Shown here: piece after piece, positions 5,152 through 43,540 of the stretch
How positions within the stretch are numbered: position 1 is the stretch's first letter
Layout of the letters: every line of letters starts with the position of its first letter
NCBI RefSeq assembly: GCF_013122565.1
Contig: NZ_CP053258.1
Length of the DNA: 64,000 nt
Source of the DNA: Escherichia coli
Lineage (GTDB): Bacteria > Pseudomonadota > Gammaproteobacteria > Enterobacterales > Enterobacteriaceae
Reading direction: 5' to 3' (one strand)
The notes under the pieces: model-generated
Told to the model about the DNA's origin: nothing
The model's input: the letters and a program-made list of their open reading frames with translations, nothing else
Databases searched by the model: none
Program-made: the position numbers and the translations under genes

Positions 5152-8001
5152 TTGAAATACCTTGCTTCTTTTCGTACAACCCTGAAAGCCTCGCGCTACA
5201 TGTTCAGAGCATTGGCGTTAGTGCTCTGGCTGTTGATTGCTTTTTCATCCGTTTTTTACATCGTTAATGCGTTACATCAGCGAGAATCGGAAATTCGTCA
5301 GGAATTTAATCTGAGTTCCGATCAGGCTCAGCGCTTTATTCAACGCACCTCTGATGTGATGAAAGAGCTGAAGTACATCGCTGAAAATCGCTTATCGGTA
5401 GAAAACGGTGTGCTTTCCCCGCGTGGACGAGAAACGCAGGCAGATGTGCCTGCGTTTGAACCGCTGTTTGCCGACTCCGATTGTTCCGCAATGAGTAACA
5501 CCTGGCGAGGTTCTCTGGAGTCATTGGCGTGGTTTATGCGCTACTGGCGCGATAATTTTTCTGCGGCTTACGATCTCAACCGGGTATTTTTAATCGGCAG
5601 CGATAACCTCTGCATGGCCAATTTCGGTCTGCGTGATATGCCAGTGGAACGCGATACCGCGTTGAAAGCTTTGCATGAACGCATCAATAAATATCGAAAT
5701 GCACCACAAGATGATAGCGGCAGTAACCTCTACTGGATCAGCGAAGGTCCGCGCCCTGGCGTCGGGTATTTTTACGCGTTGACGCCAGTTTATCTGGCGA
5801 ACCGGTTGCAGGCGCTTTTGGGTGTCGAGCAAACCATCCGGATGGAGAACTTTTTCTTACCGGGTACGTTGCCGATGGGGGTTACCATTCTTGATGAAAA
5901 TGGTCATACCCTGATTTCGCTTACCGGACCAGAAAGCAAAATTAAGGGCGATCCTCGCTGGATGCAGGAACGCTCCTGGTTTGGCTATACGGAAGGGTTC
6001 CGGGAGCTGGTGCTGAAGAAAAATCTGCCACCCTCATCGCTAAGCATCGTGTATTCGGTGCCGGTTGATAAGGTGCTGGAACGCATTCGCATGTTGATCC
6101 TTAACGCAATTTTGCTGAATGTGCTTGCCGGAGCTGCATTGTTTACTCTCGCGCGGATGTACGAGCGACGTATTTTCATTCCGGCGGAAAGCGACGCCCT
6201 GCGACTGGAAGAACATGAGCAGTTCAATCGCAAGATTGTCGCCTCCGCGCCAGTGGGTATCTGCATTTTGCGTACCGCTGATGGCGTCAATATTTTAAGT
6301 AACGAACTGGCGCATACCTATCTCAATATGCTTACGCATGAGGACCGCCAACGACTGACGCAAATTATCTGTGGGCAGCAGGTCAATTTTGTTGATGTCC
6401 TGACCAGCAACAATACCAATCTGCAAATCAGCTTCGTCCATTCGCGCTATCGTAATGAAAACGTGGCCATTTGTGTGCTGGTGGATGTTTCTTCGCGCGT
6501 GAAGATGGAAGAGTCGTTGCAGGAGATGGCACAAGCAGCGGAACAGGCGAGCCAGTCAAAATCGATGTTCCTTGCCACCGTCAGTCATGAGCTGCGAACG
6601 CCGCTGTATGGCATTATCGGTAACCTGGATCTTTTGCAAACCAAAGAGTTACCGAAAGGCGTCGATCGTCTGGTGACGGCAATGAACAACTCTTCCAGCC
6701 TGTTGTTGAAAATTATCAGCGATATTCTCGATTTCTCGAAGATTGAATCGGAACAGTTGAAGATCGAACCGCGTGAGTTTTCACCGCGTGAAGTGATGAA
6801 CCACATCACCGCCAACTATTTACCGCTGGTGGTACGCAAGCAGTTAGGCTTGTACTGCTTTATTGAACCGGATGTGCCAGTGGCCTTAAATGGCGACCCG
6901 ATGCGTTTACAGCAGGTCATCTCCAACCTGTTGAGTAACGCCATAAAATTCACCGATACCGGCTGTATAGTTTTGCATGTCCGCGCTGATGGCGATTATC
7001 TCTCTATCCGTGTTCGCGATACCGGCGTGGGGATCCCGGCGAAAGAAGTGGTGCGCTTGTTTGATCCCTTCTTCCAGGTCGGAACGGGCGTACAGCGAAA
7101 CTTCCAGGGGACCGGTCTGGGTCTGGCGATTTGTGAAAAACTGATCAGCATGATGGACGGCGACATCTCGGTAGATTCAGAACCGGGAATGGGCAGCCAG
7201 TTTACCGTGCGTATTCCGTTGTACGGCGCTCAGTACCCGCAGAAAAAAGGCGTGGAAGGGTTGAGTGGTAAACGCTGCTGGCTGGCGGTCCGCAATGCGT
7301 CACTCTGTCAGTTCCTGGAAACCAGTTTGCAGCGCAGCGGCATCGTCGTAACAACATACGAAGGGCAGGAACCGACTCCCGAAGATGTGTTAATCACTGA
7401 CGAGGTAGTGAGTAAAAAATGGCAGGGCAGAGCGGTAGTGACCTTCTGTCGTCGACATATTGGTATTCCGCTGGAGAAAGCGCCAGGGGAGTGGGTACAC
7501 AGTGTGGCTGCTCCGCATGAGCTACCGGCATTGTTGGCGCGTATTTATTTGATCGAGATGGAGAGCGACGATCCTGCTAACGCTCTGCCGTCGACGGACA
7601 AAGCGGTCAGCGATAATGACGATATGATGTTTCTGGTCGTGGATGATCATCCGATTAACCGACGTCTGCTGGCAGATCAGTTGGGATCGTTGGGCTATCA
7701 ATGTAAAACCGCGAATGATGGCGTCGATGCGCTTAATGTACTTAGCAAGAATCATATTGATATCGTGCTTAGCGACGTCAACATGCCAAATATGGATGGT
7801 TACCGCTTGACGCAACGCATTCGTCAGTTGGGACTGACGTTGCCGGTAATCGGAGTAACTGCTAATGCGTTGGCTGAAGAGAAGCAGCGGTGTCTGGAGT
7901 CCGGTATGGACAGCTGCCTGTCGAAGCCGGTAACGCTGGATGTGATAAAACAGACGCTGACGGTATATGCCGAGAGGGTCAGGAAATCGCGGGAATCGTA
8001 G
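5152..8001 (+). CDS. rcsC: hybrid sensor histidine kinase RcsC (949 aa)
   Basis: 949-aa ORF starting MKYLASFRTTLK (TTG start), HisKA (SHELRTPL), HATPase and C-terminal receiver domain (VVDDHPINRRL). Confidence 0.95.
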   Translation: MKYLASFRTTLKASRYMFRALALVLWLLIAFSSVFYIVNALHQRESEIRQEFNLSSDQAQRFIQRTSDVMKELKYIAENRLSVENGVLSPRGRETQADVPAFEPLFADSDCSAMSNTWRGSLESLAWFMRYWRDNFSAAYDLNRVFLIGSDNLCMANFGLRDMPVERDTALKALHERINKYRNAPQDDSGSNLYWISEGPRPGVGYFYALTPVYLANRLQALLGVEQTIRMENFFLPGTLPMGVTILDENGHTLISLTGPESKIKGDPRWMQERSWFGYTEGFRELVLKKNLPPSSLSIVYSVPVDKVLERIRMLILNAILLNVLAGAALFTLARMYERRIFIPAESDALRLEEHEQFNRKIVASAPVGICILRTADGVNILSNELAHTYLNMLTHEDRQRLTQIICGQQVNFVDVLTSNNTNLQISFVHSRYRNENVAICVLVDVSSRVKMEESLQEMAQAAEQASQSKSMFLATVSHELRTPLYGIIGNLDLLQTKELPKGVDRLVTAMNNSSSLLLKIISDILDFSKIESEQLKIEPREFSPREVMNHITANYLPLVVRKQLGLYCFIEPDVPVALNGDPMRLQQVISNLLSNAIKFTDTGCIVLHVRADGDYLSIRVRDTGVGIPAKEVVRLFDPFFQVGTGVQRNFQGTGLGLAICEKLISMMDGDISVDSEPGMGSQFTVRIPLYGAQYPQKKGVEGLSGKRCWLAVRNASLCQFLETSLQRSGIVVTTYEGQEPTPEDVLITDEVVSKKWQGRAVVTFCRRHIGIPLEKAPGEWVHSVAAPHELPALLARIYLIEMESDDPANALPSTDKAVSDNDDMMFLVVDDHPINRRLLADQLGSLGYQCKTANDGVDALNVLSKNHIDIVLSDVNMPNMDGYRLTQRIRQLGLTLPVIGVTANALAEEKQRCLESGMDSCLSKPVTLDVIKQTLTVYAERVRKSRES

Positions 8002-26441: not shown

Positions 26442-27044
26442 ATGGGAAATTCTGACCGTAAGCCTGGTCTGATTAAGCGCCTGTGGAAATGGTGGCGTAC
26501 CCCCAGCCGTCTGGCGCTGGGGACGCTGCTGTTGATCGGCTTTGTTGGCGGCATCGTCTTCTGGGGCGGCTTTAACACCGGGATGGAAAAAGCCAATACC
26601 GAAGAGTTCTGCATTAGCTGCCACGAAATGCGTAACACGGTGTATCAGGAATACATGGATTCCGTGCACTACAACAACCGTAGCGGCGTTCGTGCGACCT
26701 GTCCGGATTGTCACGTTCCGCACGAGTTTGTGCCGAAAATGATACGCAAGCTCAAAGCAAGTAAAGAGCTGTATGGTAAAATTTTTGGCGTTATTGACAC
26801 GCCGCAGAAATTCGAAGCTCATCGCCTGACTATGGCACAGAATGAGTGGCGGCGAATGAAGGACAACAACTCGCAGGAGTGCCGTAACTGTCACAACTTC
26901 GAGTTTATGGATTTAACCGCCCAGAAAGGTGTTGCCGCGAAGATGCATGACCAGGCGGTGAAAGATGGGCAAACCTGTATTGATTGCCATAAAGGGATAG
27001 CGCACAAGCTGCCCGATATGCGTGAAGTCGAGCCAGGTTTTTAA
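26442..27044 (+). CDS. napC: membrane-anchored tetraheme cytochrome c quinol dehydrogenase NapC, 200 aa
   Basis: N-terminal TM helix, four CxxCH (CISCH, CPDCH, CRNCH, CIDCH). Confidence 0.96.
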   Translation: MGNSDRKPGLIKRLWKWWRTPSRLALGTLLLIGFVGGIVFWGGFNTGMEKANTEEFCISCHEMRNTVYQEYMDSVHYNNRSGVRATCPDCHVPHEFVPKMIRKLKASKELYGKIFGVIDTPQKFEAHRLTMAQNEWRRMKDNNSQECRNCHNFEFMDLTAQKGVAAKMHDQAVKDGQTCIDCHKGIAHKLPDMREVEPGF

Positions 27045-27056
27045 CAGGGTTATTGC

Positions 27057-27680
27057 GTGGGTATGCTTGAAGCCAGAGAGTTACTTTGTGAGCGGGATGA
27101 ACGAACCTTATTTAGTGGCTTGTCATTTACGCTGAACGCAGGAGAGTGGGTACAAATCACCGGTAGCAACGGCGCGGGGAAGACAACGCTTCTCCGTTTG
27201 CTGACGGGGTTGTCTCGCCCTGACGCAGGCGAGGTTCTCTGGCAAGGGCAGCCCTTGCATCAGGTACGCGACAGCTACCATCAAAACCTGTTATGGATAG
27301 GCCATCAGCCGGGGATCAAAACCCGGCTGACGGCGTTAGAAAATCTGCACTTTTATCATCGCGATGGCGATACCGCACAATGTCTGGACGCCCTGGCGCA
27401 GGCCGGGCTTGCCGGATTCGAAGATATTCCTGTAAATCAACTTTCTGCCGGACAACAACGCCGCGTCGCTTTAGCGCGTTTGTGGCTGACCCGTGCCACG
27501 TTATGGATCCTCGACGAGCCTTTTACCGCGATTGACGTTAACGGCGTCGATCGTCTGACCCAGCGTATGGCGCAGCATACGGAGCAGGGGGGAATTGTGA
27601 TTCTGACTACCCACCAGCCGCTCAACGTTGCTGAAAATAAAATTCGCCGCATTTCACTGACGCAAACGAGGGCCGCATGA
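27057..27680 (+). CDS. ccmA: heme exporter ATP-binding protein CcmA
   Basis: Walker [13 protein letters not shown] signature LSAGQQRR; first gene of ccm operon after napC. Confidence 0.94.
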
Positions 27681-28339
27681 TGTTCTGGCGCATTTTCCGT
27701 CTTGAGCTGCGCGTAGCGTTTCGCCATAGCGCCGAAATCGCCAACCCGCTGTGGTTCTTCCTGATTGTAATTACCCTTTTTCCGCTCAGTATCGGTCCGG
27801 AGCCGCAATTGCTGTCGCGTATTGCACCGGGCATTATCTGGGTTGCTGCGCTGCTTTCATCCTTGCTGGCGCTGGAACGACTGTTCCGTGACGATTTGCA
27901 GGACGGCAGTCTTGAACAATTGATGTTGTTGCCGTTACCCTTGCCCGCCGTTGTGCTGGCGAAGGTGATGGCGCACTGGATGGTAACCGGTCTGCCGTTA
28001 CTCATCCTTTCGCCACTGGTAGCAATGCTACTGGGAATGGATGTTTATGGCTGGCAAGTGATGGCGCTGACGCTGCTGCTGGGAACGCCTACGCTTGGCT
28101 TTCTCGGTGCACCGGGTGTGGCGTTGACAGTGGGACTTAAGCGCGGTGGTGTGCTGCTCAGCATACTGGTGTTACCGCTGACTATCCCATTACTCATCTT
28201 TGCCACCGCCGCGATGGACGCGGCTTCCATGCATTTGCCCGTTGACGGGTATCTGGCAATTTTAGGCGCGTTGCTGGCAGGCACCGCGACATTAAGTCCT
28301 TTTGCGACGGCGGCAGCGTTACGAATCAGCATTCAATAA
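27677..28339 (+). CDS. ccmB: heme exporter membrane protein CcmB, 220 aa
   Basis: 220-aa polytopic membrane ORF, overlaps ccmA stop. Confidence 0.94.
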
Positions 28340-28380
28340 CGCTGGATTACTGATTTTTGTTCGAGTCTGGTATCGAAACT

Positions 28381-29118
28381 ATGTGGAAAACACTGCATCA
28401 ACTGGCGATCCCACCACGACTGTATCAAATCTGTGGCTGGTTTATACCGTGGCTGGCAATTGCCAGTGTGGTCGTGCTTACCGTCGGCTGGATCTGGGGA
28501 TTCGGCTTTGCTCCGGCTGATTATCAGCAGGGAAATAGCTACCGCATTATCTACCTGCATGTGCCTGCGGCGATCTGGTCGATGGGCATTTATGCATCAA
28601 TGGCGGTGGCGGCGTTTATTGGCCTTGTCTGGCAGATGAAAATGGCCAACCTGGCGGTGGCGGCGATGGCCCCCATTGGTGCCGTGTTTACTTTTATTGC
28701 CCTGGTTACCGGCTCTGCATGGGGAAAACCGATGTGGGGCACCTGGTGGGTATGGGATGCACGTCTGACTTCTGAACTGGTGCTGCTGTTTCTGTATGTT
28801 GGTGTAATTGCCCTGTGGCACGCCTTCGACGACCGCCGTCTGGCGGGCCGTGCGGCAGGTATCCTGGTGCTGATTGGCGTGGTGAATCTGCCGATTATTC
28901 ATTACTCCGTGGAGTGGTGGAACACCCTGCATCAGGGATCAACGCGGATGCAGCAAAGTATCGATCCGGCGATGCGTTCGCCGCTGCGCTGGTCGATTTT
29001 TGGCTTCCTGCTGCTGTCTGCCACGCTGACGCTGATGCGGATGCGTAATTTGATTTTGCTGATGGAAAAACGCCGTCCGTGGGTGAGTGAACTGATACTG
29101 AAAAGAGGCCGTAAATGA
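28381..29118 (+). CDS. ccmC: heme exporter/heme lyase component CcmC, 245 aa
   Basis: MWKTLHQLAIPPRLYQ, WGxxWxWD tryptophan-rich motif (WGTWWVWDARL). Confidence 0.94.
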   Translation: MWKTLHQLAIPPRLYQICGWFIPWLAIASVVVLTVGWIWGFGFAPADYQQGNSYRIIYLHVPAAIWSMGIYASMAVAAFIGLVWQMKMANLAVAAMAPIGAVFTFIALVTGSAWGKPMWGTWWVWDARLTSELVLLFLYVGVIALWHAFDDRRLAGRAAGILVLIGVVNLPIIHYSVEWWNTLHQGSTRMQQSIDPAMRSPLRWSIFGFLLLSATLTLMRMRNLILLMEKRRPWVSELILKRGRK

Positions 29119-29324
29119 CCCCTGCATTTGCTTCCTGGAATGAATTTTTCGCAATGGGCGGTTACGCCTTTTTTGTCTGGCTGGCGGTGGTGATGACCGT
29201 TATTCCGCTGGTGGTTTTGGTCGTGCACTCGGTGATGCAACATCGCGCAATTCTGCGTGGCGTGGCGCAACAGTGGGCGCGTGAGGCGCGTTTACGTGCT
29301 GCGCAACAGCAGGAGGCTGCATGA
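29115..29324 (+). CDS. ccmD: CcmD, 69 aa
   Basis: 69-aa single-TM ORF coupled between ccmC and ccmE. Confidence 0.92.
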
Positions 29325-29800
29325 ATATTCGCCGTAAAAACCGCTTGTGGATTGCCTGTGCTGTGTTGGCAGGGCTGGCGCTGACTATCGGTCTGGTGCT
29401 GTATGCGCTGCGCTCGAATATCGATCTCTTTTATACGCCGGGGGAGATTCTCTACGGCAAGCGTGAAACTCAGCAGATGCCGGAAGTCGGTCAGCGTCTG
29501 CGCGTTGGCGGGATGGTGATGCCGGGTAGCGTGCAGCGCGATCCCAATTCGCTGAAAGTAACGTTCACCATTTACGATGCTGAAGGCTCAGTGGATGTCT
29601 CTTACGAAGGCATTTTGCCGGATCTGTTCCGTGAAGGGCAGGGCGTTGTGGTGCAGGGCGAGCTGGAAAAAGGCAATCATATCCTCGCGAAAGAAGTGCT
29701 GGCGAAACATGATGAAAACTACACGCCGCCAGAAGTTGAGAAAGCGATGGAAGCTAACCACCGTCGCCCGGCGAGTGTTTATAAGGACCCAGCATCATGA
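29321..29800 (+). CDS. ccmE: heme chaperone CcmE, 159 aa
   Basis: 159-aa ORF, N-terminal anchor. Confidence 0.94.
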
Positions 29801-31740
29801 TGCCGGAAATTGGTAACGGACTGCTGTGCCTGGCGCTGGGAATTGCGCTGCTGCTGTCCGTGTATCCGCTATGGGGCGTGGCGCGCGGAGATGCGCGCAT
29901 GATGGCGTCTTCCCGCTTGTTTGCCTGGCTGCTGTTTATGTCTGTAGCTGGCGCATTTCTGGTGCTGGTCAATGCTTTCGTGGTCAACGACTTTACCGTC
30001 ACCTATGTTGCCAGCAACTCCAATACCCAGCTTCCGGTGTGGTATCGCGTGGCGGCTACCTGGGGCGCGCATGAAGGCTCGCTACTGCTGTGGGTGCTGC
30101 TGATGAGCGGCTGGACCTTTGCGGTGGCGATTTTTAGTCAGCGTATTCCGCTGGATATTGTGGCCCGTGTACTGGCGATAATGGGGATGGTCAGCGTCGG
30201 CTTTTTGCTGTTCATTCTCTTTACCTCTAACCCGTTTTCACGCACGTTGCCGAACTTCCCGATTGAAGGGCGCGATCTTAACCCGCTGTTACAGGATCCG
30301 GGGCTGATCTTCCATCCGCCTCTGCTCTATATGGGGTACGTGGGTTTCTCGGTGGCGTTTGCTTTTGCCATTGCTTCTTTGCTGAGCGGGCGTCTGGACA
30401 GCACTTATGCGCGTTTTACTCGTCCGTGGACGCTGGCGGCGTGGATTTTCCTGACGCTCGGCATTGTGCTCGGTTCCGCATGGGCCTATTACGAACTCGG
30501 CTGGGGTGGCTGGTGGTTCTGGGATCCGGTAGAAAACGCCTCGTTTATGCCGTGGTTGGTGGGTACTGCGCTGATGCACTCACTGGCGGTCACTGAACAA
30601 CGCGCCAGCTTCAAAGCGTGGACATTACTGCTGGCAATCAGTGCCTTTTCGCTGTGTCTGTTGGGGACTTTCCTGGTGCGTTCCGGCGTGCTGGTATCGG
30701 TACACGCGTTTGCGTCTGATCCGGCGCGCGGTATGTTTATCCTCGCCTTTATGGTGCTGGTGATTGGCGGTTCGCTGCTGCTGTTTGCCGCGCGTGGACA
30801 CAAAGTTCGCTCACGCGTAAACAATGCGCTGTGGTCGCGGGAATCTTTGCTGTTAGCGAACAACGTTTTGCTGGTCGCCGCAATGCTGGTGGTGTTGCTG
30901 GGGACGCTGCTGCCGCTGGTGCACAAGCAACTGGGACTGGGCAGTATTTCGATTGGCGAACCGTTCTTCAACACCATGTTTACCTGGCTGATGGTGCCGT
31001 TTGCTCTACTGCTGGGTGTCGGTCCTCTGGTGCGCTGGGGGCGCGATCGCCCACGTAAAATCCGCAATTTATTGATTATCGCCTTCATCTCAACGCTGGT
31101 GCTGTCGCTGCTGCTGCCGTGGCTGTTCGAAAGCAAAGTTGTGGCGATGACGGTGCTCGGCCTGGCAATGGCCTGCTGGATTGCGGTGCTGGCAATTGCG
31201 GAAGCTGCGCTGCGTATTTCACGTGGCACGAAAACCACCTTCAGTTATTGGGGAATGGTGGCGGCTCACCTGGGGCTGGCAGTGACAATTGTTGGTATTG
31301 CCTTTAGCCAGAACTATAGCGTTGAGCGTGATGTGCGCATGAAGTCCGGCGATAGTGTCGATATTCATGAATATCGCTTCACCTTCCGTGATGTCAAAGA
31401 GGTGACTGGCCCGAACTGGCGTGGCGGTGTGGCGACTATCGGCGTAACGCGAGAGGGTAAACCAGAAACGGTGCTGTATGCGGAAAAACGTTATTACAAC
31501 ACTGCCGGGTCGATGATGACCGAAGCGGCGATTGACGGCGGCATCACGCGTGACCTGTACGCGGCCCTCGGTGAAGAGCTGGAAAACGGCGCGTGGGCCG
31601 TGCGTCTTTACTACAAACCGTTTGTTCGCTGGATTTGGGCGGGCGGGCTGATGATGGCGTTGGGCGGACTGCTGTGTCTGTTTGATCCTCGCTATCGTAA
31701 GCGCGTGAGCCCGCAAAAAACTGCGCCGGAGGCTGTATGA
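29797..31740 (+). CDS. ccmF: cytochrome c heme lyase subunit CcmF, 647 aa
   Basis: 647-aa polytopic ORF with W-rich motif ([12 protein letters not shown]). Confidence 0.95.
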
Positions 31741-32294
31741 AGCGCAAAGTATTGTTAATTCCGTTGATTATCTTCCTGGCGATTGCCGCGGCGCTGCTGT
31801 GGCAGCTGGCGCGTAATGCCGAAGGGGATGATCCGACCAATCTGGAATCGGCGCTCATTGGCAAGCCTGTGCCGAAGTTTCGTCTCGAATCACTGGACAA
31901 TCCAGGGCAGTTTTATCAGGCGGATGTGCTGACTCAGGGCAAACCAGTGCTGCTTAACGTCTGGGCGACCTGGTGTCCGACCTGCCGTGCGGAACATCAA
32001 TATCTGAATCAGCTTTCAGCGCAGGGCATTCGCGTGGTCGGCATGAACTATAAAGACGATCGCCAGAAGGCAATCAGCTGGCTGAAAGAGCTGGGCAATC
32101 CTTACGCGCTAAGCCTGTTTGATGGCGACGGCATGTTAGGGCTGGATCTCGGTGTCTATGGCGCGCCAGAAACGTTCCTTATTGACGGCAACGGCATCAT
32201 TCGCTATCGCCATGCGGGCGATCTCAATCCTCGCGTCTGGGAAGAAGAGATCAAGCCGCTGTGGGAGAAATACAGTAAGGAGGCCGCACAATGA
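31737..32294 (+). CDS. ccmG: thiol:disulfide interchange protein CcmG/DsbE, 185 aa
   Basis: thioredoxin motif WCPTC. Confidence 0.95.
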   Translation: MKRKVLLIPLIIFLAIAAALLWQLARNAEGDDPTNLESALIGKPVPKFRLESLDNPGQFYQADVLTQGKPVLLNVWATWCPTCRAEHQYLNQLSAQGIRVVGMNYKDDRQKAISWLKELGNPYALSLFDGDGMLGLDLGVYGAPETFLIDGNGIIRYRHAGDLNPRVWEEEIKPLWEKYSKEAAQ

Positions 32295-33343
32295 GGTTTT
32301 TATTGGGCGTGCTGATGCTGATGATCTCCGGCTCAGCGCTGGCGACCATCGACGTGTTGCAGTTTAAAGATGAAGCACAGGAACAACAGTTCCGTCAGCT
32401 CACTGAAGAACTGCGCTGCCCGAAATGCCAGAACAACAGCATTGCCGATTCCAACTCGATGATTGCCACCGACCTGCGCCAGAAAGTGTATGAACTGATG
32501 CAGGAAGGTAAAAGTAAAAAAGAGATTGTCGATTATATGGTGGCGCGTTACGGCAACTTCGTCACTTACGATCCGCCGTTAACGCCGCTGACCGTATTGC
32601 TGTGGGTGCTGCCAGTAGTGGCTATTGGCATTGGCGGTTGGGTCATATACGCCCGCTCGCGGCGTCGGGTACGCGTGGTGCCGGAAGCGTTTCCTGAACA
32701 AAGCGTGCTGGAAGGTAAGCGTGCCGGATATGTTGTTTATCTGCCGGGTATTGTGGTGGCGTTAATTGTGGCTGGCGTCAGCTACTACCAGACTGGCAAT
32801 TATCAGCAGGTGAAAATCTGGCAGCAGGCCACGGCACAGGCTCCGGCGTTGCTGGACAGGGCGCTGGATCCGAAAGCTGATCCGCTCAACGAAGAAGAGA
32901 TGTCGCGCCTTGCGCTGGGGATGCGTACTCAACTGCAAAAAAATCCGGGAGATATAGACGGCTGGATTATGTTGGGCCGCGTTGGCATGGCGCTGGGTAA
33001 CGCCAGTATTGCCACCGATGCATACGCTACTGCATATCGCCTCGATCCGAAGAACAGTGATGCTGCACTGGGTTACGCTGAAGCGTTGACACGTTCATCT
33101 GATCCCAACGACAACCGCCTGGGGGGTGAACTACTACGCCAGTTGGTGAGAACGGACCATAGCAATATCCGTGTGTTAAGCATGTATGCGTTTAATGCCT
33201 TTGAGCAGCAGCGATTTGGCGAAGCCGTTGCCGCGTGGGAGATGATGTTGAAACTCTTACCTGCCAACGATACTCGCCGTGCTGTGATTGAACGTAGTAT
33301 CGCGCAGGCGATGCAACATTTGTCGCCGCAGGAGAGTAAATAA
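32291..33343 (+). CDS. ccmH: cytochrome c heme lyase subunit CcmH, 350 aa
   Basis: N-terminal LRCPKC motif, C-terminal TPR-like region. Confidence 0.94.
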   Translation: MRFLLGVLMLMISGSALATIDVLQFKDEAQEQQFRQLTEELRCPKCQNNSIADSNSMIATDLRQKVYELMQEGKSKKEIVDYMVARYGNFVTYDPPLTPLTVLLWVLPVVAIGIGGWVIYARSRRRVRVVPEAFPEQSVLEGKRAGYVVYLPGIVVALIVAGVSYYQTGNYQQVKIWQQATAQAPALLDRALDPKADPLNEEEMSRLALGMRTQLQKNPGDIDGWIMLGRVGMALGNASIATDAYATAYRLDPKNSDAALGYAEALTRSSDPNDNRLGGELLRQLVRTDHSNIRVLSMYAFNAFEQQRFGEAVAAWEMMLKLLPANDTRRAVIERSIAQAMQHLSPQESK

Positions 33344-34344: not shown

Positions 34345-36936
34345 ATGCATCAATCTGGTTCTGTTTCTCTTTGTCGTTCCGCAATATCTGTTCTGGTGGC
34401 TACAGCGTTATATTCACCCATAGCATTGGCATCAACAGTTGAGTATGGTGAGACAGTTGATGGTGTTGTCCTGGAAAAAGATATCCAGCTGGTTTATGGG
34501 ACCGCCAATAATACGAAAATCAATCCTGGCGGAGAACAGCATATTAAAGAATTTGGTATAAGTAGTAATACTGAAATTAACGGCGGGTATCAGTACATTG
34601 AAATGAATGGCACCGCAGAATACTCCGTATTAAATGATGGTTATCAAATTGTTCAAATGGGTGGCGCGGCAAACCAGACTACCCTCAATAATGGTGTGCT
34701 ACAGGTTTATGGCGCAGCGAATGATCCCACGATTAAAGGCGGGCGCTTAATCGTTGAAAAAGATGGGATTACCGTCCTTGCCGCTATCGAAAAGGGAGGA
34801 TTACTGGAGGTTAAAGAGGGGGGGTTAGCGATTGCGGTAGATCAGAAAGCCGGCGGTGCTATTAAAACAACCACGCGGGCCATGGAGGTATTCGGAACAA
34901 ACCGTCTCGGTCAGTTCGATATCAAGAATGGTATTGCTAACAATATGCTGTTGGAAAACGGCGGAAGTTTGCGAGTTGAAGAAAATGACTTCGCTTATAA
35001 TACTACTGTAGATAGTGGCGGCTTACTGGAGGTTATGGATGGCGGGACTGCAACTGGCGTTGATAAAAAAGCAGGCGGAAAATTAATTGTCTCAACGAAT
35101 GCGCTGGAAGTGAGTGGTACAAACAGTAAAGGCCAATTTAGTATAAAAGATGGTGTGTCAAAAAATTATGAACTGGACGATGGTTCCGGGCTCATTGTTA
35201 TGGAGGACACGCAGGCCATTGATACTATCCTTGATGAGCATGCCACTATGCAATCGCTGGGAAAGGATACTGGTACGAGAGTGCAGGCAAATGCGGTATA
35301 TGATCTGGGTCGATCAGATCAGAATGGAAGTATCACGTATTCCTCTAAAGCCATCTCTGAAAATATGGTTATCAACAATGGCCGCGCTAATGTCTGGGCA
35401 GGCACAATGGTTAACGTTTCAGTCAGAGGGAATGATGGCATTCTTGAGGTCATGAAGCCGCAAATAAATTATGCACCCGCTATGTTGGTGGGTAGTGTCG
35501 TGGTTTCTGAGGGCGCTTCTTTAAGAACGCATGGTGCCGTGGATACCAGCAAAGCGGATGTTTCGCTCGAAAATAGCTCATGGACCATCATTGCCGATAT
35601 CACTACGACGAACCAAAACACCCGCCTCAATTTAGCCAACCTTGCGATGTCTGGCGCAAATGTGATTATGATGGATGAGCCAGTGACTCGTTCATCTGTG
35701 ACGGCAAGTGCGGAAAATTTCACTACGTTGACCACCAATACCCTGTCGGGAAACGGCAATTTTTATATGCGTACCGATATGGCTAATCATCAGAGCGATC
35801 AGCTCAACGTCACCGGACAGGCAACAGGTGATTTCAAAATATTCGTGACGGACACCGGTGCCAGCCCGGCAGCAGGAGATAGCCTTACACTGGTAACAAC
35901 GGGCGGCGGTGATGCTGCATTTACGTTGGGCAATGCCGGAGGCGTTGTTGATATCGGTACGTATGAATATACCTTGCTGGATAATGGCAATCATAGCTGG
36001 AGTCTGGCAGAGAATCGCGCGCAAATTACCCCTTCAACCACTGATGTGCTAAATATGGCGGCAGCACAACCGCTGGTATTTGATGCAGAACTGGACACCG
36101 TGCGTGAGCGTCTTGGTAGCGTAAAAGGCGTTAGTTACGATACGGCGATGTGGAGTTCGGCAATTAACACCCGCAACAACGTGACCACTGATGCGGGCGC
36201 TGGTTTTGAGCAAACATTGACGGGCCTGACGCTCGGTATCGATAGCCGTTTCTCCCGTGAAGAAAGCAGTACAATTCGCGGCTTGTTCTTTGGTTACTCT
36301 CATTCTGATATTGGTTTTGATCGCGGCGGCAAAGGCAATGTCGATAGCTATACCCTGGGTGCTTATGCCGGTTGGGAGCATCAGAACGGTGCCTATGTTG
36401 ATGGGGTGGTGAAAGTTGACCGTTTTGCCAACACCATCCATGGCAAGATGAGTAATGGGGCAACAGCGTTTGGCGATTACAATAGTAACGGCGCGGGTGC
36501 TCATGTTGAGAGCGGGTTCCGTTGGGTTGACGGATTGTGGAGTGTTAGACCCTATCTGGCCTTTACCGGCTTTACCACAGATGGTCAGGACTACACGTTA
36601 TCAAACGGCATGCGCGCGGACGTGGGAAATACCCGGATATTACGCGCTGAAGCGGGAACGGCGGTAAGCTATCACATGGACCTGCAAAACGGTACGACGC
36701 TGGAACCCTGGCTGAAAGCCGCCGTGCGTCAGGAATACGCCGATTCTAACCAGGTGAAAGTTAATGACGATGGCAAATTTAATAATGATGTGGCTGGAAC
36801 CAGTGGCGTTTATCAGGCTGGGATAAGGTCATCGTTTACCCCGACGTTAAGCGGTCATTTGTCAGTCAGCTATGGCAATGGCGCAGGGGTAGAATCACCG
36901 TGGAATACTCAGGCGGGTGTGGTCTGGTCGTTCTGA
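34345..36936 (+). CDS. yejO: autotransporter adhesin-like protein YejO, intact 863 aa
   Basis: N-terminal signal peptide, repetitive passenger, C-terminal beta-barrel ending VVWSF; adjacent to tRNA-Pro as yejO is. Confidence 0.85.
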   Translation: MHQSGSVSLCRSAISVLVATALYSPIALASTVEYGETVDGVVLEKDIQLVYGTANNTKINPGGEQHIKEFGISSNTEINGGYQYIEMNGTAEYSVLNDGYQIVQMGGAANQTTLNNGVLQVYGAANDPTIKGGRLIVEKDGITVLAAIEKGGLLEVKEGGLAIAVDQKAGGAIKTTTRAMEVFGTNRLGQFDIKNGIANNMLLENGGSLRVEENDFAYNTTVDSGGLLEVMDGGTATGVDKKAGGKLIVSTNALEVSGTNSKGQFSIKDGVSKNYELDDGSGLIVMEDTQAIDTILDEHATMQSLGKDTGTRVQANAVYDLGRSDQNGSITYSSKAISENMVINNGRANVWAGTMVNVSVRGNDGILEVMKPQINYAPAMLVGSVVVSEGASLRTHGAVDTSKADVSLENSSWTIIADITTTNQNTRLNLANLAMSGANVIMMDEPVTRSSVTASAENFTTLTTNTLSGNGNFYMRTDMANHQSDQLNVTGQATGDFKIFVTDTGASPAAGDSLTLVTTGGGDAAFTLGNAGGVVDIGTYEYTLLDNGNHSWSLAENRAQITPSTTDVLNMAAAQPLVFDAELDTVRERLGSVKGVSYDTAMWSSAINTRNNVTTDAGAGFEQTLTGLTLGIDSRFSREESSTIRGLFFGYSHSDIGFDRGGKGNVDSYTLGAYAGWEHQNGAYVDGVVKVDRFANTIHGKMSNGATAFGDYNSNGAGAHVESGFRWVDGLWSVRPYLAFTGFTTDGQDYTLSNGMRADVGNTRILRAEAGTAVSYHMDLQNGTTLEPWLKAAVRQEYADSNQVKVNDDGKFNNDVAGTSGVYQAGIRSSFTPTLSGHLSVSYGNGAGVESPWNTQAGVVWSF

Positions 36937-37037: not shown

Positions 37038-37114
37038 TGGTCGGCACGAGAGGATTTGAACCTCCGACCCCCGACACCCCATGACGGTGCGCTACCAGGC
37101 TGCGCTACGTGCCG
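37038..37114 (-). tRNA. proL: tRNA-Pro (GGG anticodon), 77 nt including CCA
   Basis: reverse complement reads CGGCACGTAGCGCAGCCTGGTAGCGCACCGTCATGGGGTGTCGGGGGTCGGAGGTTCAAATCCTCTCGTGCCGACCA. Confidence 0.93.
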
Positions 37115-39377: not shown

Positions 39378-40385
39378 ATGAGTCTGGATATCAACCAGAT
39401 TGCTCTGCACCAGCTTATCAAGCGTGATGAGCAGAACCTTGAGCTGGTGTTGCGCGATTCATTGCTGGAACCGACAGAAACCGTCGTTGAGATGGTGGCA
39501 GAACTGCATCGGGTCTATAGCGCCAAAAATAAAGCTTACGGCTTGTTTAGCGAAGAGAGTGAACTGGCGCAGACGCTGCGCTTACAGCGTCAGGGCGAAG
39601 AGGACTTTCTGGCATTTAGCCGCGCGGCAACCGGTCGCCTGCGTGACGAATTAGCGAAATATCCTTTTGCTGACGGTGGATTCGTGCTGTTTTGCCACTA
39701 CCGTTATCTGGCGGTGGAGTATCTGCTGGTGGCAGTCCTGAGCAACCTGAGCAGTATGCGCGTTAACGAAAATCTCGACATCAACCCAACCCATTATCTT
39801 GATATCAATCATGCGGATATTGTTGCGCGTATCGATTTAACCGAATGGGAAACCAATCCAGAGTCGACCCGCTATCTCACTTTCCTGAAAGGGCGAGTAG
39901 GGCGCAAAGTGGCGGATTTCTTTATGGATTTCCTCGGGGCCAGCGAAGGGTTAAACGCGAAAGCGCAAAACCGTGGGCTGTTGCAAGCGGTTGATGATTT
40001 CACTGCCGAAGCACAACTGGATAAAGCAGAGCGACAGAACGTGCGCCAGCAGGTTTATAGCTACTGTAATGAGCAGCTGCAGGCAGGCGAAGAGATTGAA
40101 CTGGAGTCGCTGTCGAAAGAGCTGGCAGGCGTCAGCGAAGTGAGCTTCACGGAGTTTGCGGCTGAAAAAGGCTACGAACTGGAAGAGAGCTTCCCGGCAG
40201 ACCGTAGCACACTGCGTCAGTTGACGAAGTTTGCCGGTAGCGGCGGTGGCTTGACTATTAACTTTGATGCGATGCTGTTAGGTGAACGCATCTTCTGGGA
40301 TCCGGCGACCGATACCCTGACCATTAAAGGCACGCCGCCGAATTTGCGCGACCAATTGCAGCGCCGGACGTCTGGTGGGAACTAA
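39378..40385 (+). CDS. yejK: nucleoid-associated protein YejK (NdpA), 335 aa
   Basis: 335-aa [22 protein letters not shown]. Confidence 0.94.
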
Positions 40386-40765
40386 ATCTCCAACGCGAAT
40401 GTTTCTTTTCGGAGAAACAGTTGCGGGATAATCACAATTCTTGTCAATCAGTTAGTGAGATGACTTGCTGATTGACCTTTCATTCGAAAATGTTTTCTCT
40501 GTTATTATACTTAGTGTTACTGAAAATATTATTCTCTTATCCCCTTTATTCGATAATAAATCGGTCTGGTCACTATTTCCGCCGTTTTTTGTGAGCTGTA
40601 ACACTGGAAAAATCATTCTGTTTAATTATATTGAGTTTACTTGGCGTTATATGTTGTTATTTGCTTTGACTATATAAAATGCAAATGTATTCTTAATGTC
40701 AATATTATTGTCGTTATGTTTGACTCATTATATTAATCGTATGAATAGTTTTAAGGATTCACCGC

Positions 40766-41338
40766 ATGGAGCAAGAAAATCCTGAAGATAGAAAGTGTTG
40801 TCGACCGAAAAAAACGTTCTCTTTAACCAGAAAATTACTGGTATGTTTTATCTTTACCCTCATTGTATTCAGTGGTTGTTTATTTGTCGTTATGAACACG
40901 GTCATTCATAACACCAGCACTGACAGCTTTTGCCTGGGTTGTCATGAAATGAAAGACAACATCCTTACCGAGAGTTTCAAAAAATCCATTCATGGCAGTA
41001 ATCGTACTGGCGTGAAAGTCGCTTGTGCCGATTGCCATATTCCTGATGAATTTGTCCCTAAGATGATCAGAAAAGCCCACGCCGTTAAAGAGGTTTGGGG
41101 GCATATGACAGGCGTAATTGATACGGCCGATAAATTCGATGCACATCGTGGCGAAATGGCAAAAGCGGAATGGGCAAGAATGAAAGCAAACAATTCGCAG
41201 GAATGCAGAGACTGCCACGATATTTCTAAATTACAGAAAAAATTTATGGCGCCGTTCCATGAGGCTTCTCTTAAAGAAGGGAAAACATGCATTGATTGTC
41301 ATGCCGGCATTGCACATAAATTACCAGCAGTTCATTAG
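40766..41338 (+). CDS. NapC/NirT/CymA-family membrane-anchored tetraheme cytochrome c (putative quinol dehydrogenase), 190 aa; NapC paralog
   Basis: N-terminal TM helix (LLVCFIFTLIVFSGCLFVV), four CxxCH (CLGCH, CADCH, CRDCH, CIDCH); shares blocks VPKMIRK, NNSQECR-CH, TCIDCH-GIAHKLP with the napC in this window. Confidence 0.85.
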   Translation: MEQENPEDRKCCRPKKTFSLTRKLLVCFIFTLIVFSGCLFVVMNTVIHNTSTDSFCLGCHEMKDNILTESFKKSIHGSNRTGVKVACADCHIPDEFVPKMIRKAHAVKEVWGHMTGVIDTADKFDAHRGEMAKAEWARMKANNSQECRDCHDISKLQKKFMAPFHEASLKEGKTCIDCHAGIAHKLPAVH

Positions 41339-41431
41339 TCATTAATACATGAATGTCATGTCTGTCTGGTTTCAAATAAAAACAAGAAGGGTTTCATGTT
41401 GATTTAAGTTTTTATGTAAAAGGACCATGTT

Positions 41432-43072
41432 ATGAGGAAACTAAAAAGGGGATTCTTATTGGCTGGGGTATTAACGGCACTTTCTCTAAGCGCTTATGCT
41501 GACAGAAATATGAATAAGATCCCGCATATCAATCTGTCGAATCCATCCGTCGAACCAGTTAGTGAGAGAATAATCCAAACAGATATTGTTGTTATTGGCG
41601 GTGGGCTTTCTGGCATGTCCGCAGGGTTGACTGCAGTACAGGGCGGAGCCAAAGTTGTTATTTTTGAAAAACTACCAAGCCTTGGAGGGGCAGGCGTTTA
41701 TCCTGAAGGCAGTTTAGGCATTGGCACCCTTATGCAAAAAAAAGAGGGGAAAGGTGCCACGCTGAATCAAGCCTTTGGTAAGGCGATCGATTTCCATCAC
41801 TGGCGAGCCAATGCTAGTGCATTGCACGCATTAATGAAAAACTCAGGCGAAACCATTGATTGGGTTGCCAGTAATGGCGTTGAGTTTACGACCTTAAAAA
41901 CCACCATTTATCCTCAGTCAGATTCATTATGGACCTGGCATATGTATAAGCATAATGGTGCATCTGTTACTAAAAGCTTTTACAAGAAGATCCTTGATGG
42001 AGGTGGGCAAATCTACACCGAAACTCCTGTTAAGAAGATTCTTCGCGACAAACAAAGCGGTGATGTCGTTGGCGTCGAAGCGGTTAATAGCGTAACAGGG
42101 GAAAAAATCATTGCCTATGGTAAGGGTGTGATTGTGGCGACCGGTGGTTTTGCCAACAACCGTGACATGATTGAAAAATACATCACCGATGTGAATCAGA
42201 AAAACATGGTGCCGGTCAAACTACGTGGCCCCCTGATTGATGGACGCGAAGGCGATGGTATCAAAATGGGGCAAGACATTGGCGCTGATACTGCCGGGAT
42301 GCAAACCATTGCTGGCAATAGCCCATATGTCGATCAAGACCCTCCTATCCGTCAGTTTAATGGCGCGGATTACCAAAAACAGGCCAGAACGTCATTAAGC
42401 CAGCCATTCCTGTGGATTAACCGACAAGGCGAGCGTTTCTTTGATGAGTCACTCGGTTCCAGTTTTACCCTCGTTTATAACGCTATCACCATGAATGGCG
42501 GAGTCATGTATTCTGTCTGGGATGATGCAATGCGCCAGAAGATGGTTAACGAAGGGCCGGTTACACCGTTTAACGCCATCGTGTTGCCTGGGCAGCCGAT
42601 GAAGGCGCTGGATCAGGCGATCGAAATCGGCATGAAAGAAGGGTGGTTATTTAAAGGTGAAACGTTGGACGATCTGGCAAAACAGATCAATGTTCCTGCA
42701 GACAATCTGAAAGCGACGATTGCGAAAGTAAACAAGTATACGGATGAAGGTTTCGATCCTGACTGGGGGCGCAAGAAAGAGCATCTGTTTAAATTTCAGG
42801 ATAAAGGACCGTATTACGCCGTGAAAGGTATTCGGGCTTATTTCCTGACGCTGGGTGGTTTGAAAATGAACAGCGATCTGCAGGTCTACGATACCAATGA
42901 GAAGATTATCCCAGGTCTGTATGTTGTCGGGCAGGATATGGGCGGTCTGTATGACAGCTCCTATGATTTGGTACTTGAAGGATCGGCTTCTGGCTTTGCG
43001 TTGACGTCGGGACGTATGGCAGCGAAACATATTATAAGCACCAGAGTGCAGGCACAGGGAGGAGGCAAATGA
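41432..43072 (+). CDS. exported FAD-dependent flavoprotein of the fumarate-reductase/succinate-dehydrogenase flavoprotein (FAD_binding_2) type, 546 aa; substrate unknown
   Basis: N-terminal signal peptide MRKLKRGFLLAGVLTALSLSAYA; dinucleotide fold DIVVIGGGLSGMSAGLTA...EKLPSLGGAG; C-terminal GLYVVGQDMGG; no CxxCH. Confidence 0.8.
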   Translation: MRKLKRGFLLAGVLTALSLSAYADRNMNKIPHINLSNPSVEPVSERIIQTDIVVIGGGLSGMSAGLTAVQGGAKVVIFEKLPSLGGAGVYPEGSLGIGTLMQKKEGKGATLNQAFGKAIDFHHWRANASALHALMKNSGETIDWVASNGVEFTTLKTTIYPQSDSLWTWHMYKHNGASVTKSFYKKILDGGGQIYTETPVKKILRDKQSGDVVGVEAVNSVTGEKIIAYGKGVIVATGGFANNRDMIEKYITDVNQKNMVPVKLRGPLIDGREGDGIKMGQDIGADTAGMQTIAGNSPYVDQDPPIRQFNGADYQKQARTSLSQPFLWINRQGERFFDESLGSSFTLVYNAITMNGGVMYSVWDDAMRQKMVNEGPVTPFNAIVLPGQPMKALDQAIEIGMKEGWLFKGETLDDLAKQINVPADNLKATIAKVNKYTDEGFDPDWGRKKEHLFKFQDKGPYYAVKGIRAYFLTLGGLKMNSDLQVYDTNEKIIPGLYVVGQDMGGLYDSSYDLVLEGSASGFALTSGRMAAKHIISTRVQAQGGGK

Positions 43073-43479
43073 GTAAGCTATTGAAGAACATTGTCACAAT
43101 CATTCTTGCTGGCGTAATGTGCACCGTTATCGGTATGGTTTCTGCCAGTGCACAAGAGATTGTCGGCATGAAAATGCACAAGACCATTGGTCTGGAATGT
43201 AATAACTGCCATGTTGATGATGTTAAAGCCAACAAGAATATGACGCCAACGTGCGTTAGCTGCCATGCGCCTGGTGAGCGTTATTATCATGGTAAGAAGG
43301 ATTCAGAAGGTAACTCAGTGTTAAAAGAGTATCCGGAGTCGGGTAAAACACGAGTTGCGTCTTTCCATGACTCTCATGGCGGGGAAATTCGCTGTACGGT
43401 ATGCCATACGTCACATGAGAAGGAACCACAGCCACTCTATTGCAACAACTGCCATCAGTTTGATGTGAAGATTAAGTAG
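43069..43479 (+). CDS. small periplasmic tetraheme cytochrome c, 136 aa
   Basis: signal peptide, four CxxCH (CNNCH, CVSCH, CTVCH, CNNCH) in ~110 mature residues; ATGA overlap with upstream flavoprotein gene. Confidence 0.85.
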   Translation: MSKLLKNIVTIILAGVMCTVIGMVSASAQEIVGMKMHKTIGLECNNCHVDDVKANKNMTPTCVSCHAPGERYYHGKKDSEGNSVLKEYPESGKTRVASFHDSHGGEIRCTVCHTSHEKEPQPLYCNNCHQFDVKIK

Positions 43480-43501
43480 TGAAGGTATTTGTCAGTCGCT
43501 G

Positions 43502-43540
43502 AAAAAGAAAACGGCCCGTAAAGGCCGTTTTCTTTTGTTC
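43502..43540. terminator. intrinsic terminator (aaacggcccgtaaaggccgttt + T-run) between the island operon and convergent rplY
   Basis: GC hairpin flanked by gaaaaagaaa and ttcttttg. Confidence 0.85.

Follow-up and report, generated by a model that had tools for sequence, protein, structure and literature searches.

A NapC-related tetraheme cytochrome in a three-gene insertion of Escherichia coli, a probable dedicated quinol dehydrogenase for a flavoprotein and its c3 subunit

The locus

We studied a 64,000-nucleotide stretch of Escherichia coli DNA (NCBI RefSeq assembly GCF_013122565.1, contig NZ_CP053258.1; hereafter the window), and within it a gene for a tetraheme cytochrome c of the NapC/NirT family that opens a three-gene insertion between yejK and rplY. 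The insertion, which we call the island, starts directly after the stop codon of yejK at position 40385 and carries, in this order, genes for the NapC-like membrane anchor, for a secreted flavoprotein of the FAD_binding_2 family (FAD, flavin adenine dinucleotide) and for a tetraheme c3-type subunit (Table 1). Its guanine-plus-cytosine (GC) fraction is 0.31-0.48, against about 0.52 in the flanks, which are 98.5-99.3% identical to E. coli. The window as a whole follows the typical E. coli order of napFDAGHBC, ccmA-H, narP, tRNA-Pro, yejM, yejL, yejK, rplY, radD, rsuA and bcr. The NapC-like gene begins 13.7 kb from the end of the resident napC, in agreement with the roughly 14 kb given in a preliminary description of this DNA. 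The ccm genes are laid out as in the context of a cryptic-clade Escherichia locus (L022, with CcmF, CcmG and CcmH there), and the host maturation machinery that they encode would attach the island's eight hemes.

Table 1. Coordinates in the window of the island, its genes and signals, and of the resident genes to which they are compared or related
Feature	Coordinates	Strand	Remarks
Three-gene insertion (island), 3.15 kb	40386..43535	+	Replaces the yejK-rplY spacer of about 110 bp of typical E. coli; from alignment to the reference E. coli spacer
NapC-like gene: NapC/NirT-family tetraheme cytochrome c, 190 residues	40766..41338	+	N-terminal membrane helix at about residues 20-49; proposed role, dedicated (mena)quinol dehydrogenase
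Flavoprotein gene: secreted FAD-binding flavoprotein, 546 residues	41432..43072	+	PF00890 (FAD_binding_2), E 1.4e-43; N-terminal Sec-type signal peptide; proposed terminal reductase
c3 gene: small periplasmic tetraheme cytochrome c3-type subunit, 136 residues	43069..43479	+	Sec signal peptide; four CxxCH motifs; PF14537, E 1e-12
Candidate promoter (tentative)	40590..40632	+	CRP-like box TGTGAGCTGTAACACT at 40590-40605; -10-like TATATT at 40627-40632
GC-rich hairpin AAAACGGCC-cgtaaa-GGCCGTTTT	43506..43538	.	Between the stop codons of c3 and rplY; read from the sequence
Resident canonical napC, last gene of napFDAGHBC	26442..27044	+	Comparator outside the island; NCBIfam NapC equivalog, 461.5 bits against a cut-off of 349
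ccmABCDEFGH, cytochrome c maturation	27057..33343	+	CcmA, CcmB and CcmC pass NCBIfam cut-offs; remaining open reading frames in ccm operon layout

Family, heme motifs and quinol site of the NapC-like protein

The reading frame of the NapC-like gene opens with ATG, with AAGGA lying 8 nt upstream, and its product matches the Pfam family of the NapC/NirT N-terminal region (PF03264, Cytochrom_NNT) with an E value of 5.5e-57 over residues 24-188, which corresponds to positions 7-173 of the 174 in the model. Four CxxCH motifs provide for four hemes (C56/C59-H60, C87/C90-H91, C147/C150-H151 and C175/C178-H179). The sole hydrophobic segment is N-terminal, with a Kyte-Doolittle maximum of 2.91 over 19 residues at positions 24-42, and the AlphaFold model has its helix at residues 20-49, with a predicted local distance difference test (pLDDT) score of 93-97. 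The predicted fold is of the NrfH type.

Conservation outside the heme motifs follows the same lines. Three histidines outside the motifs (H76, H165 and H184) do not vary among the 58 aligned family members, and a fourth, H127, is present in 13 of the 14 sequences of the island clade and in 33 of 38 NapC sequences. In the HMMER alignment to NrfH, the Met of the CxxCHxM motif, Lys82 and Asp89, which we take from established structural knowledge to be quinol-site residues of that protein, correspond to M62, K103 and D119. K103 is invariant (58/58), M62 is found throughout the island clade (14/14), and D119 is kept in all displayed island-clade sequences but that of Budvicia, which has a Gly instead. 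Judged by family match, heme motifs, predicted fold and these residues, the gene encodes a genuine tetraheme cytochrome of the NapC/NirT family, whose features are those to be expected in a quinol dehydrogenase. It is ordinary in type, and public databases already carry a generic annotation for it.

Two further histidines set the island clade apart: His48 and His113 are invariant within it, at positions where NapC has Glu and Lys. His48 sits just past the membrane helix, and CymA and TorY also have His there. These clade-specific residues might change heme ligation or the quinol site. An Asp in the place of NapC His95 (VPHEF to IPDEF) was considered as a lost heme ligand and dropped, given that most NapCs have Lys at this position in the wider alignment.

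Relationship to NapC and to other subfamilies

The resident NapC is the natural comparator for the island's anchor. The preliminary description had estimated their identity at about 55% by eye; BLASTP returns a lower figure of 47% (86/182, with 65% positives), at an E value of 1e-61 that marks a similarity far beyond the CxxCH motifs alone. The blocks quoted there as common to both proteins do recur in both (CLGCHEM and CISCHEM, FVPKMIRK, NNSQECRDCH and NNSQECRNCH, GKTCIDCHAGIAHKLP and GQTCIDCHKGIAHKLP), as do four CxxCH motifs with equal spacing and a single N-terminal hydrophobic helix. The N-termini diverge as described, and the loop after heme 3 is indeed shorter in the NapC-like protein, by four residues rather than the three first counted.

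Profile models of the named subfamilies all score below their cut-offs. For the NCBIfam NapC equivalog (NF007906) the NapC-like protein reaches 199.4 bits against 349, and for the napC_nirT subfamily model TIGR02161 it reaches 206.7 bits against 310.6, a threshold that the resident NapC passes with 348.8. The TorC models give 173 and 130 bits (cut-offs 478 and 455) and the NrfH model gives 53.9 bits (cut-off 134.2). Membership in the pentaheme group of TorC, TorY and DorC, proteins of about 366-390 residues in which an N-domain is followed by a monoheme C-domain, was rejected for a product of 190 residues with four hemes and no C-terminal domain.

Identities and a neighbour-joining tree (a distance method; 195 columns, 300 bootstraps) were obtained from a MAFFT alignment of 70 family members. 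The NapC-like protein is 45-49% identical to the NapCs of many Beta- and Gammaproteobacteria and 46.7% identical to that of its own host. The identity falls to 38.5% for the N-terminal domains of TorC and TorY from E. coli, and to 27-31% for a CymA-type clade of Shewanella and Ferrimonas. We name this last clade after the probe that led to it, presumably S. oneidensis CymA; the databases call its members only 'NapC/NirT family'. In the tree, a single clade with 100% bootstrap unites the flavoprotein-linked NapC-like proteins, canonical NapC groups to their exclusion (82%), and the NapC-like protein and the resident NapC never appear as sisters (0%). The CymA-type clade (100%) excludes the NapC-like protein and lies far from it, and NapC is the named subfamily closest to the island clade.

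Base composition adds to this picture, since the GC content at third codon positions (GC3) is 0.40 in the NapC-like gene, 0.62 in napC and 0.60 in yejK. The gene is not a recent napC duplicate because of the 0% sister bootstrap, the 47% identity and the foreign base composition taken together. The preliminary description had left open whether it was such a duplicate or a horizontally acquired CymA-like gene; the evidence bears out horizontal acquisition and neither the duplicate nor, in sequence, the CymA-like origin. By its placement in the tree the protein is a deep sister lineage of NapC, and it would be CymA-like in its proposed role only.

The nearest relative of the island clade outside the islands is a protein with 47% identity that has no linked flavoprotein (P0309, L027:5001-7058). 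Its gene is followed by those of a small monoheme cytochrome and of a 371-residue multiheme cytochrome, another case of a NapC-type anchor with a different private partner.

The flavoprotein and its c3 subunit

The N-terminus of the flavoprotein, MRKLKRGFLLAG, reads without a twin arginine, and at the corresponding point its homologues have KR, QR, QK, RK or HR, none of them RR. Among NCBIfam models the best match is the vinyl phenol reductase VprA of Lactobacillus (E 8.8e-93; 311.7 bits, below the cut-off of 600), followed by a generic flavocytochrome c model with 173 bits. VprA converts vinylphenols to ethylphenols (PMC10295242). Among solved structures, urocanate reductase (6t85/6t86) comes closest and the Shewanella flavocytochromes c3 come next. 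The structural model (mean pLDDT 89.3) compares with 6t86 in Foldseek at template modelling (TM) scores of 0.71 and 0.84 and 26% identity, and its structural neighbours also include 3-ketosteroid dehydrogenases and cyclohexanone dehydrogenase, with TM-scores of 0.62-0.73.

Active-site residues were mapped from Fcc3 by reading HMMER pairwise alignments to 1d4d and 6t85 by hand, with no superposition. In this mapping the catalytic proton donor R402 corresponds to S343 of the flavoprotein, and the carboxylate-binding residues H365, H504 and R545 correspond to N296, F471 and Y511 (or V514), respectively. The replacements are characteristic of a whole family. We collected at least 119 homologues with about 48% identity or more (P0144-P0262), generically named throughout, from Desulfobacter, Syntrophus, Syntrophorhabdus, Oryzomonas, Deferribacterales and others, so that the family spans anaerobic Proteobacteria and Deferribacteres. 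N296 and Y511 are invariant among them (119/119), F471 is kept in 118 and S343 in 117, and Y299, Y507, D508, D512 and E516 are conserved in at least 97% of family members. Flavin reductase clades that lack the arginine, with a Tyr where the carboxylate-binding Arg would be, are active on cinnamates in gut bacteria (10.1101/2022.12.26.521950). The flavoprotein is thus probably enzymatically active.

The start codon of the c3 gene overlaps the stop codon of the flavoprotein gene by 4 bp (ATGA), which suggests translational coupling. Of solved structures, the N-terminal tetraheme domain of Ifc3 (1qo8), a flavocytochrome c3 of Shewanella, matches the c3 subunit best. Because the c3 subunit matches this heme domain and the flavoprotein matches urocanate reductase and the flavocytochromes c3, the two proteins look like a flavocytochrome c that has been split into two subunits.

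The c3 gene always adjoins the flavoprotein gene, distant relatives included. Flavoprotein homologues of 58-74% identity, in two Deferribacteres assemblies and three other contigs, with metagenomes among the sources, keep an adjacent c3 gene and have no neighbouring NapC-type gene; a Brenneria homologue of 53% identity stands alone. From this distribution, the flavoprotein-c3 pair would be an old and widely transferred unit to which the NapC-like gene was added in the Enterobacterales, and with which it appears to have co-evolved. At the locus of Escherichia sp. MOD1-EC7003 (L009), downstream of position 7395, the c3 gene is missing from the listing of open reading frames (ATG starts, at least 120 residues), and blastn recovers 410 of its 411 nt at 89% identity; a non-ATG start or a defect may be the cause.

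Distribution, transfer and selection

The island is rare in E. coli. Neither the near nor the distant search mode found a match to its DNA among 5,426 complete E. coli genomes, and 72,556 plasmids likewise gave none, so that there is no evidence for a plasmid vehicle. Exact copies of the island proteins are present at NCBI on a handful of contigs (for example WP_171460607.1, 'NapC/NirT family cytochrome c [Escherichia coli]'), versions of 94-98% identity occur in unclassified (cryptic-clade) Escherichia, and E. albertii has a NapC-like protein of 86% identity with flavoprotein and c3 in the same clusters. A scan of a genome collection with very specific peptide patterns yielded 7 loci, and the taxonomic distribution given here is therefore a lower bound.

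The same three genes stand in the same order at the yejK-rplY site in Escherichia sp. MOD1-EC7003, E. albertii, a Citrobacter species and an unassigned enterobacterial assembly, and at a different site in Budvicia aquatica. This order is kept in every Enterobacterales locus that we examined, and in all of them the NapC-like gene has the flavoprotein and c3 genes for neighbours and in none of them napAB. Citrobacter-type loci have an extra gene directly 3' of c3, for an ATP-binding cassette (ABC) exporter of the SmdA family (NF008055, 900.8 bits against a cut-off of 845; L012:8176-9909, L002:3472-5205, L006:7803-9542 and L007:4350-6131), which is found in none of the Escherichia versions, that of the window included. 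We left this multidrug exporter paralogue out of the module; if it did belong there, it might export a cofactor or product.

Comparison with the cryptic-clade locus L022 points to the origin of the E. coli copy. The island genes are 97.0-98.8% identical to those of L022, against 92-94% for the flanking yejM, yejL-yejK, radD, rsuA and bcr (the highly conserved rplY reaches 98.9%), and synonymous divergence (dS) is 0.06-0.14 in the island against 0.29-0.48 in yejK and radD. Since the island is closer to L022 than its flanks are in both identity and dS, these data indicate that it was recently imported into E. coli from a cryptic-clade-like Escherichia lineage, apparently by recombination at the conserved yejK-rplY site. 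Other E. coli isolates with the island have different flanks around island DNA that is 99.8-100% identical. In comparisons with MOD1-EC7003 and with E. albertii, divergence in the island exceeds that in the flanks, and the module therefore appears to be old in the genus, with several allelic lineages.

Ratios of non-synonymous to synonymous divergence (dN/dS) are 0.04-0.08 for the NapC-like gene (in four independent comparisons), 0.02-0.04 for the flavoprotein gene and 0.00-0.10 for the c3 gene, and by this measure all three island genes are held by purifying selection. Over larger distances the two main partners change at different rates. Between Escherichia and Citrobacter-type loci the flavoprotein retains 92-93% identity, and 84% to Budvicia, against 60-69% and 50% for the NapC-like protein, which nonetheless forms one clade. 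The anchor tolerates more change, as cytochromes often do; the same point has been made for Mcc (PMC4427408).

Proposed function and competing explanations

Taken together, these observations make it probable that the NapC-like protein serves a three-gene respiratory module as its private quinol dehydrogenase, feeding electrons through c3 and FAD to an organic acceptor in the periplasm. The preliminary description had likewise proposed a dedicated quinol dehydrogenase beside a new terminal reductase as a self-contained branch, and this proposal is supported by the gene linkage, the separate clade, the quinol-site residues and purifying selection. Here we infer quinol oxidation, the direction and order of electron flow and respiratory use as follows. 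Menaquinol would be oxidised by the anchor at a site beside heme 1, at the membrane surface, and the electrons would move through the four hemes of the anchor and on to the c3 subunit, which is soluble and tetraheme. This subunit would then reduce the FAD of the secreted flavoprotein, from which the electrons would reach the acceptor. We know of no general-purpose quinol dehydrogenase of the CymA type in the Enterobacterales, which fits a private anchor.

As to the acceptor, we tentatively consider a non-carboxylate or phenolic unsaturated compound, for example a vinylphenol-type product of plant phenolic acids, reduced by a large, uncharacterised family of flavin reductases without the Arg, with the NapC-like lineage serving as the adaptor between this foreign two-subunit enzyme and the enterobacterial menaquinol pool. 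This is a possibility that we regard as doubtful; if true, it would mean periplasmic respiration on a class of acceptor new to the Enterobacteriaceae, in some strains of Escherichia, Citrobacter and Budvicia.

Several observations weigh against a private quinol dehydrogenase that feeds a working reductase. Neither the catalytic Arg nor the carboxylate-binding His and Arg residues of characterised respiratory enoate reductases are found in the flavoprotein, and this makes the reaction that it catalyses uncertain, as well as the very direction in which electrons flow. Without a twin arginine, the flavoprotein would have to acquire its FAD in the periplasm, as is known for Shewanella FccA and not for Escherichia. 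The island bears no gene for a regulator or sensor, and no FNR box with two mismatches or fewer occurs in 40386-40765. Non-synonymous change in the NapC-like protein is 3-5 times that in the flavoprotein, which could mean looser constraint. Finally, several E. albertii flavoprotein genes are truncated (P0014-P0016 and P0020-P0022; 79-520 residues against 546). Some cytochrome entries among P0004, P0008 and P0009 are also short, at 123-152 residues, and these shortened entries suggest start-site miscalls or pseudogenisation in some strains.

The alternative that fares best is a reversed flow, in which the flavoprotein would be a periplasmic dehydrogenase or desaturase that passes electrons through c3 to the NapC-like protein as a quinone reductase. 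The absence of the proton-donating Arg of reductases speaks for it, and so, weakly, do the dehydrogenases among the structural neighbours of the flavoprotein. NapC/NirT proteins can act as quinone reductases, as does Nitrosomonas cytochrome cM552 downstream of hydroxylamine oxidoreductase. Against it, VprA as the nearest curated model and the nearest solved relatives are all reductases, as are the two-subunit flavocytochromes c ArdAB and Mrd/Mcc (10.1101/2024.02.11.579808; PMC4427408), and reductase activity is proven for clades without the Arg whose active site has Tyr at the same position (10.1101/2022.12.26.521950). We hold reversed flow to be unlikely.

It is less likely again that the protein is a general quinol dehydrogenase hub like Shewanella CymA, serving several periplasmic reductases of the host. 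Promiscuity does occur among NapC/NirT proteins, CymA has many partners, and His48 is common to CymA and TorY and not to NapC. Set against this are the low identity to the CymA-type clade (27-31%) and its distance in the tree, and the linkage to a flavoprotein-c3 pair in every island-clade locus that was examined. Furthermore, fast change of the anchor beside conserved partners fits tuning to one partner, and the other periplasmic reductases of E. coli have donors of their own in NapC, TorC, TorY and NrfBCD.

A decaying remnant or silent passenger would agree with the rarity of the island in E. coli, with the shortened relatives noted above (cytochromes of 123 and 152 residues, E. albertii flavoproteins) and with the AT-rich leader of the island (380 bp, 31% GC), which is of a kind often silenced in acquired DNA and may be silent here too. 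Yet the frame is intact, all four heme motifs and the conserved ligands are in place, dN/dS stays at 0.04-0.08 in the four comparisons, and nearly identical copies persist in E. coli isolates with different flanks, so that we give this explanation very little credence. Strict linkage and purifying selection are the reasons why both the hub and the dead gene are disfavoured. That the gene is a recent napC duplicate, kept as a spare or differently regulated donor for NapAB, is suggested by family, shared motif blocks and a position 13.7 kb away on the same strand, and is extremely improbable given a resident NapC no closer than the NapCs of unrelated bacteria, a monophyletic NapC without it, scores below both NCBIfam NapC cut-offs, the difference in GC3, a place inside an insertion without a DNA match in the 5,426 complete E. 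coli genomes, and linkage that never includes napAB in the loci examined.

Likeness to known systems and significance

A dedicated quinol dehydrogenase for a neighbouring reductase, as we propose for the NapC-like protein, can be compared with several known arrangements. With E. coli NapC it shares PF03264, the size class (190 against 200 residues), one helix, the spacing of the four CxxCH motifs and the CxxCHEM, FVPKMIRK and TCIDCHxGIAHKLP blocks; the difference lies in linkage, to napAB in one case and to flavoprotein and c3 in the other. Shewanella CymA, a tetraheme menaquinol dehydrogenase of the NapC/NirT family that supplies, among others, a periplasmic FAD reductase of the flavocytochrome c type (FccA), is the model for the role proposed here. 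CymA, however, is a chromosomal hub encoded away from its partners, whereas the NapC-like gene is operon-linked to one partner.

In composition the island resembles FccABC of Wolinella succinogenes, with an FAD_binding_2 flavoprotein (FccA), a tetraheme subunit (FccB) and FccC, which is reported to be of the NapC/NirT type (Simon et al. 1998). The two systems differ in gene order, since the anchor comes first in the island, and in export, since the island flavoprotein has no twin-arginine translocation (Tat) signal. FccA of W. succinogenes, listed together with its heme subunit, has a Tat signal peptide with RRDLIK (PMC4427408).

Separate flavin and tetraheme subunits, encoded by adjacent genes and transferred together, are also known from the acrylate reductase ArdAB of Shewanella woodyi and from the methacrylate reductase Mrd/Mcc of Geobacter sulfurreducens AM-1 (10.1101/2024.02.11.579808; PMC4427408). 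The adjacency of flavin and tetraheme genes is the same in the island, and so are the Deltaproteobacteria and Deferribacteres as sources of relatives, as for the island flavoprotein. In contrast to the island, no NapC/NirT-type gene is described in the ard or mrd-mcc clusters (10.1101/2024.02.11.579808; PMC4427408). ArdA has a Tat signal and keeps the C4-carboxylate-binding residues of fumarate reductase (10.1101/2024.02.11.579808), unlike the island flavoprotein with Ser343, Phe471 and Tyr511, and the signal-peptide types of Mrd and Mcc differ from each other (PMC4427408).

The described precedent for pairing an anchor with a reductase is Cgr1/Cgr2 of Eggerthella lenta, in which a NapC/NirT-like cytochrome shares an operon with an FAD-dependent digoxin reductase and electrons are proposed to pass from the quinone pool through hemes to FAD (PMC5953540). 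Both systems join a membrane-anchored NapC/NirT-type multiheme protein to a secreted FAD_binding_2 reductase with a divergent active site. They differ in that the host of Cgr1/Cgr2 is Gram-positive, a separate c3 subunit is lacking there, and Cgr2 needs [4Fe-4S] clusters and Tat export; the sequences showed no close relationship. NrfH of Desulfovibrio vulgaris (PDB 2j7a, chain C), the one solved structure that we found for the NapC/NirT family, is 22% identical to the NapC-like protein, shorter, and binds the nitrite reductase NrfA directly.

A dedicated NapC/NirT anchor for a neighbouring reductase is thus of a known kind. We see moderate interest in the NapC-sister lineage, in its recruitment to a split flavocytochrome c in the Enterobacterales only, in the recent transfer and in the chemistry of a reductase without the Arg. 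The anaerobic respiratory chains of E. coli are among the best catalogued in biology, and we know of none with a periplasmic reductase of the flavocytochrome type; literature searches returned no study of this locus in Escherichia. The island would add a complete and selectively maintained branch, as predicted here. Its carriers are a few isolates of E. coli, cryptic Escherichia clades, and also many E. albertii and some Citrobacter. With it, the substrate of a widespread, uncharacterised flavin reductase family could be sought in a host amenable to genetics, and it could serve as a case for how a NapC-type anchor specialises for a new partner. It also provides a clean example of a respiratory module that moves between Escherichia species by recombination at a conserved site.

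Regulatory signals and chromosomal setting

In the leader, TGTGAGCTGTAACACT and TATATT are the only well conserved blocks across five Escherichia and Citrobacter loci. A promoter scan gave TGGAAA-16-TATATT at 40605-40632, and the spacing between the box and the -10-like element fits, tentatively, a class II promoter of the CRP/FNR family. Matches to the CRP-like box by consensus alone do not exceed chance (19 found against 25.6 expected), and we keep it only as a conserved block. An Rfam scan of the island and its leader returned no riboswitch or known RNA. At two distant flavoprotein-c3 loci (L019 and L020), a gene with a Crp/Fnr-type domain that binds cyclic nucleoside monophosphates (cNMP) lies divergently upstream.

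The GC-rich hairpin beyond c3 has weak, hairpin-type Rfam matches only, on both strands, and is likely to be a bidirectional terminator that closes the operon. At the other end, an inverted repeat (TGTTTCT...AGAAACA) at 40400-40430, within the insertion and just 3' of the yejK stop codon, is conserved in Escherichia carriers of the island and may be a replacement terminator for yejK.

Elsewhere in the window, an open reading frame of 863 residues lies on the plus strand at 34345-36936, between narP and tRNA-Pro (37038-37114). In reference E. coli, the same tRNA is adjoined by a phage integrase and IS21 remnants.

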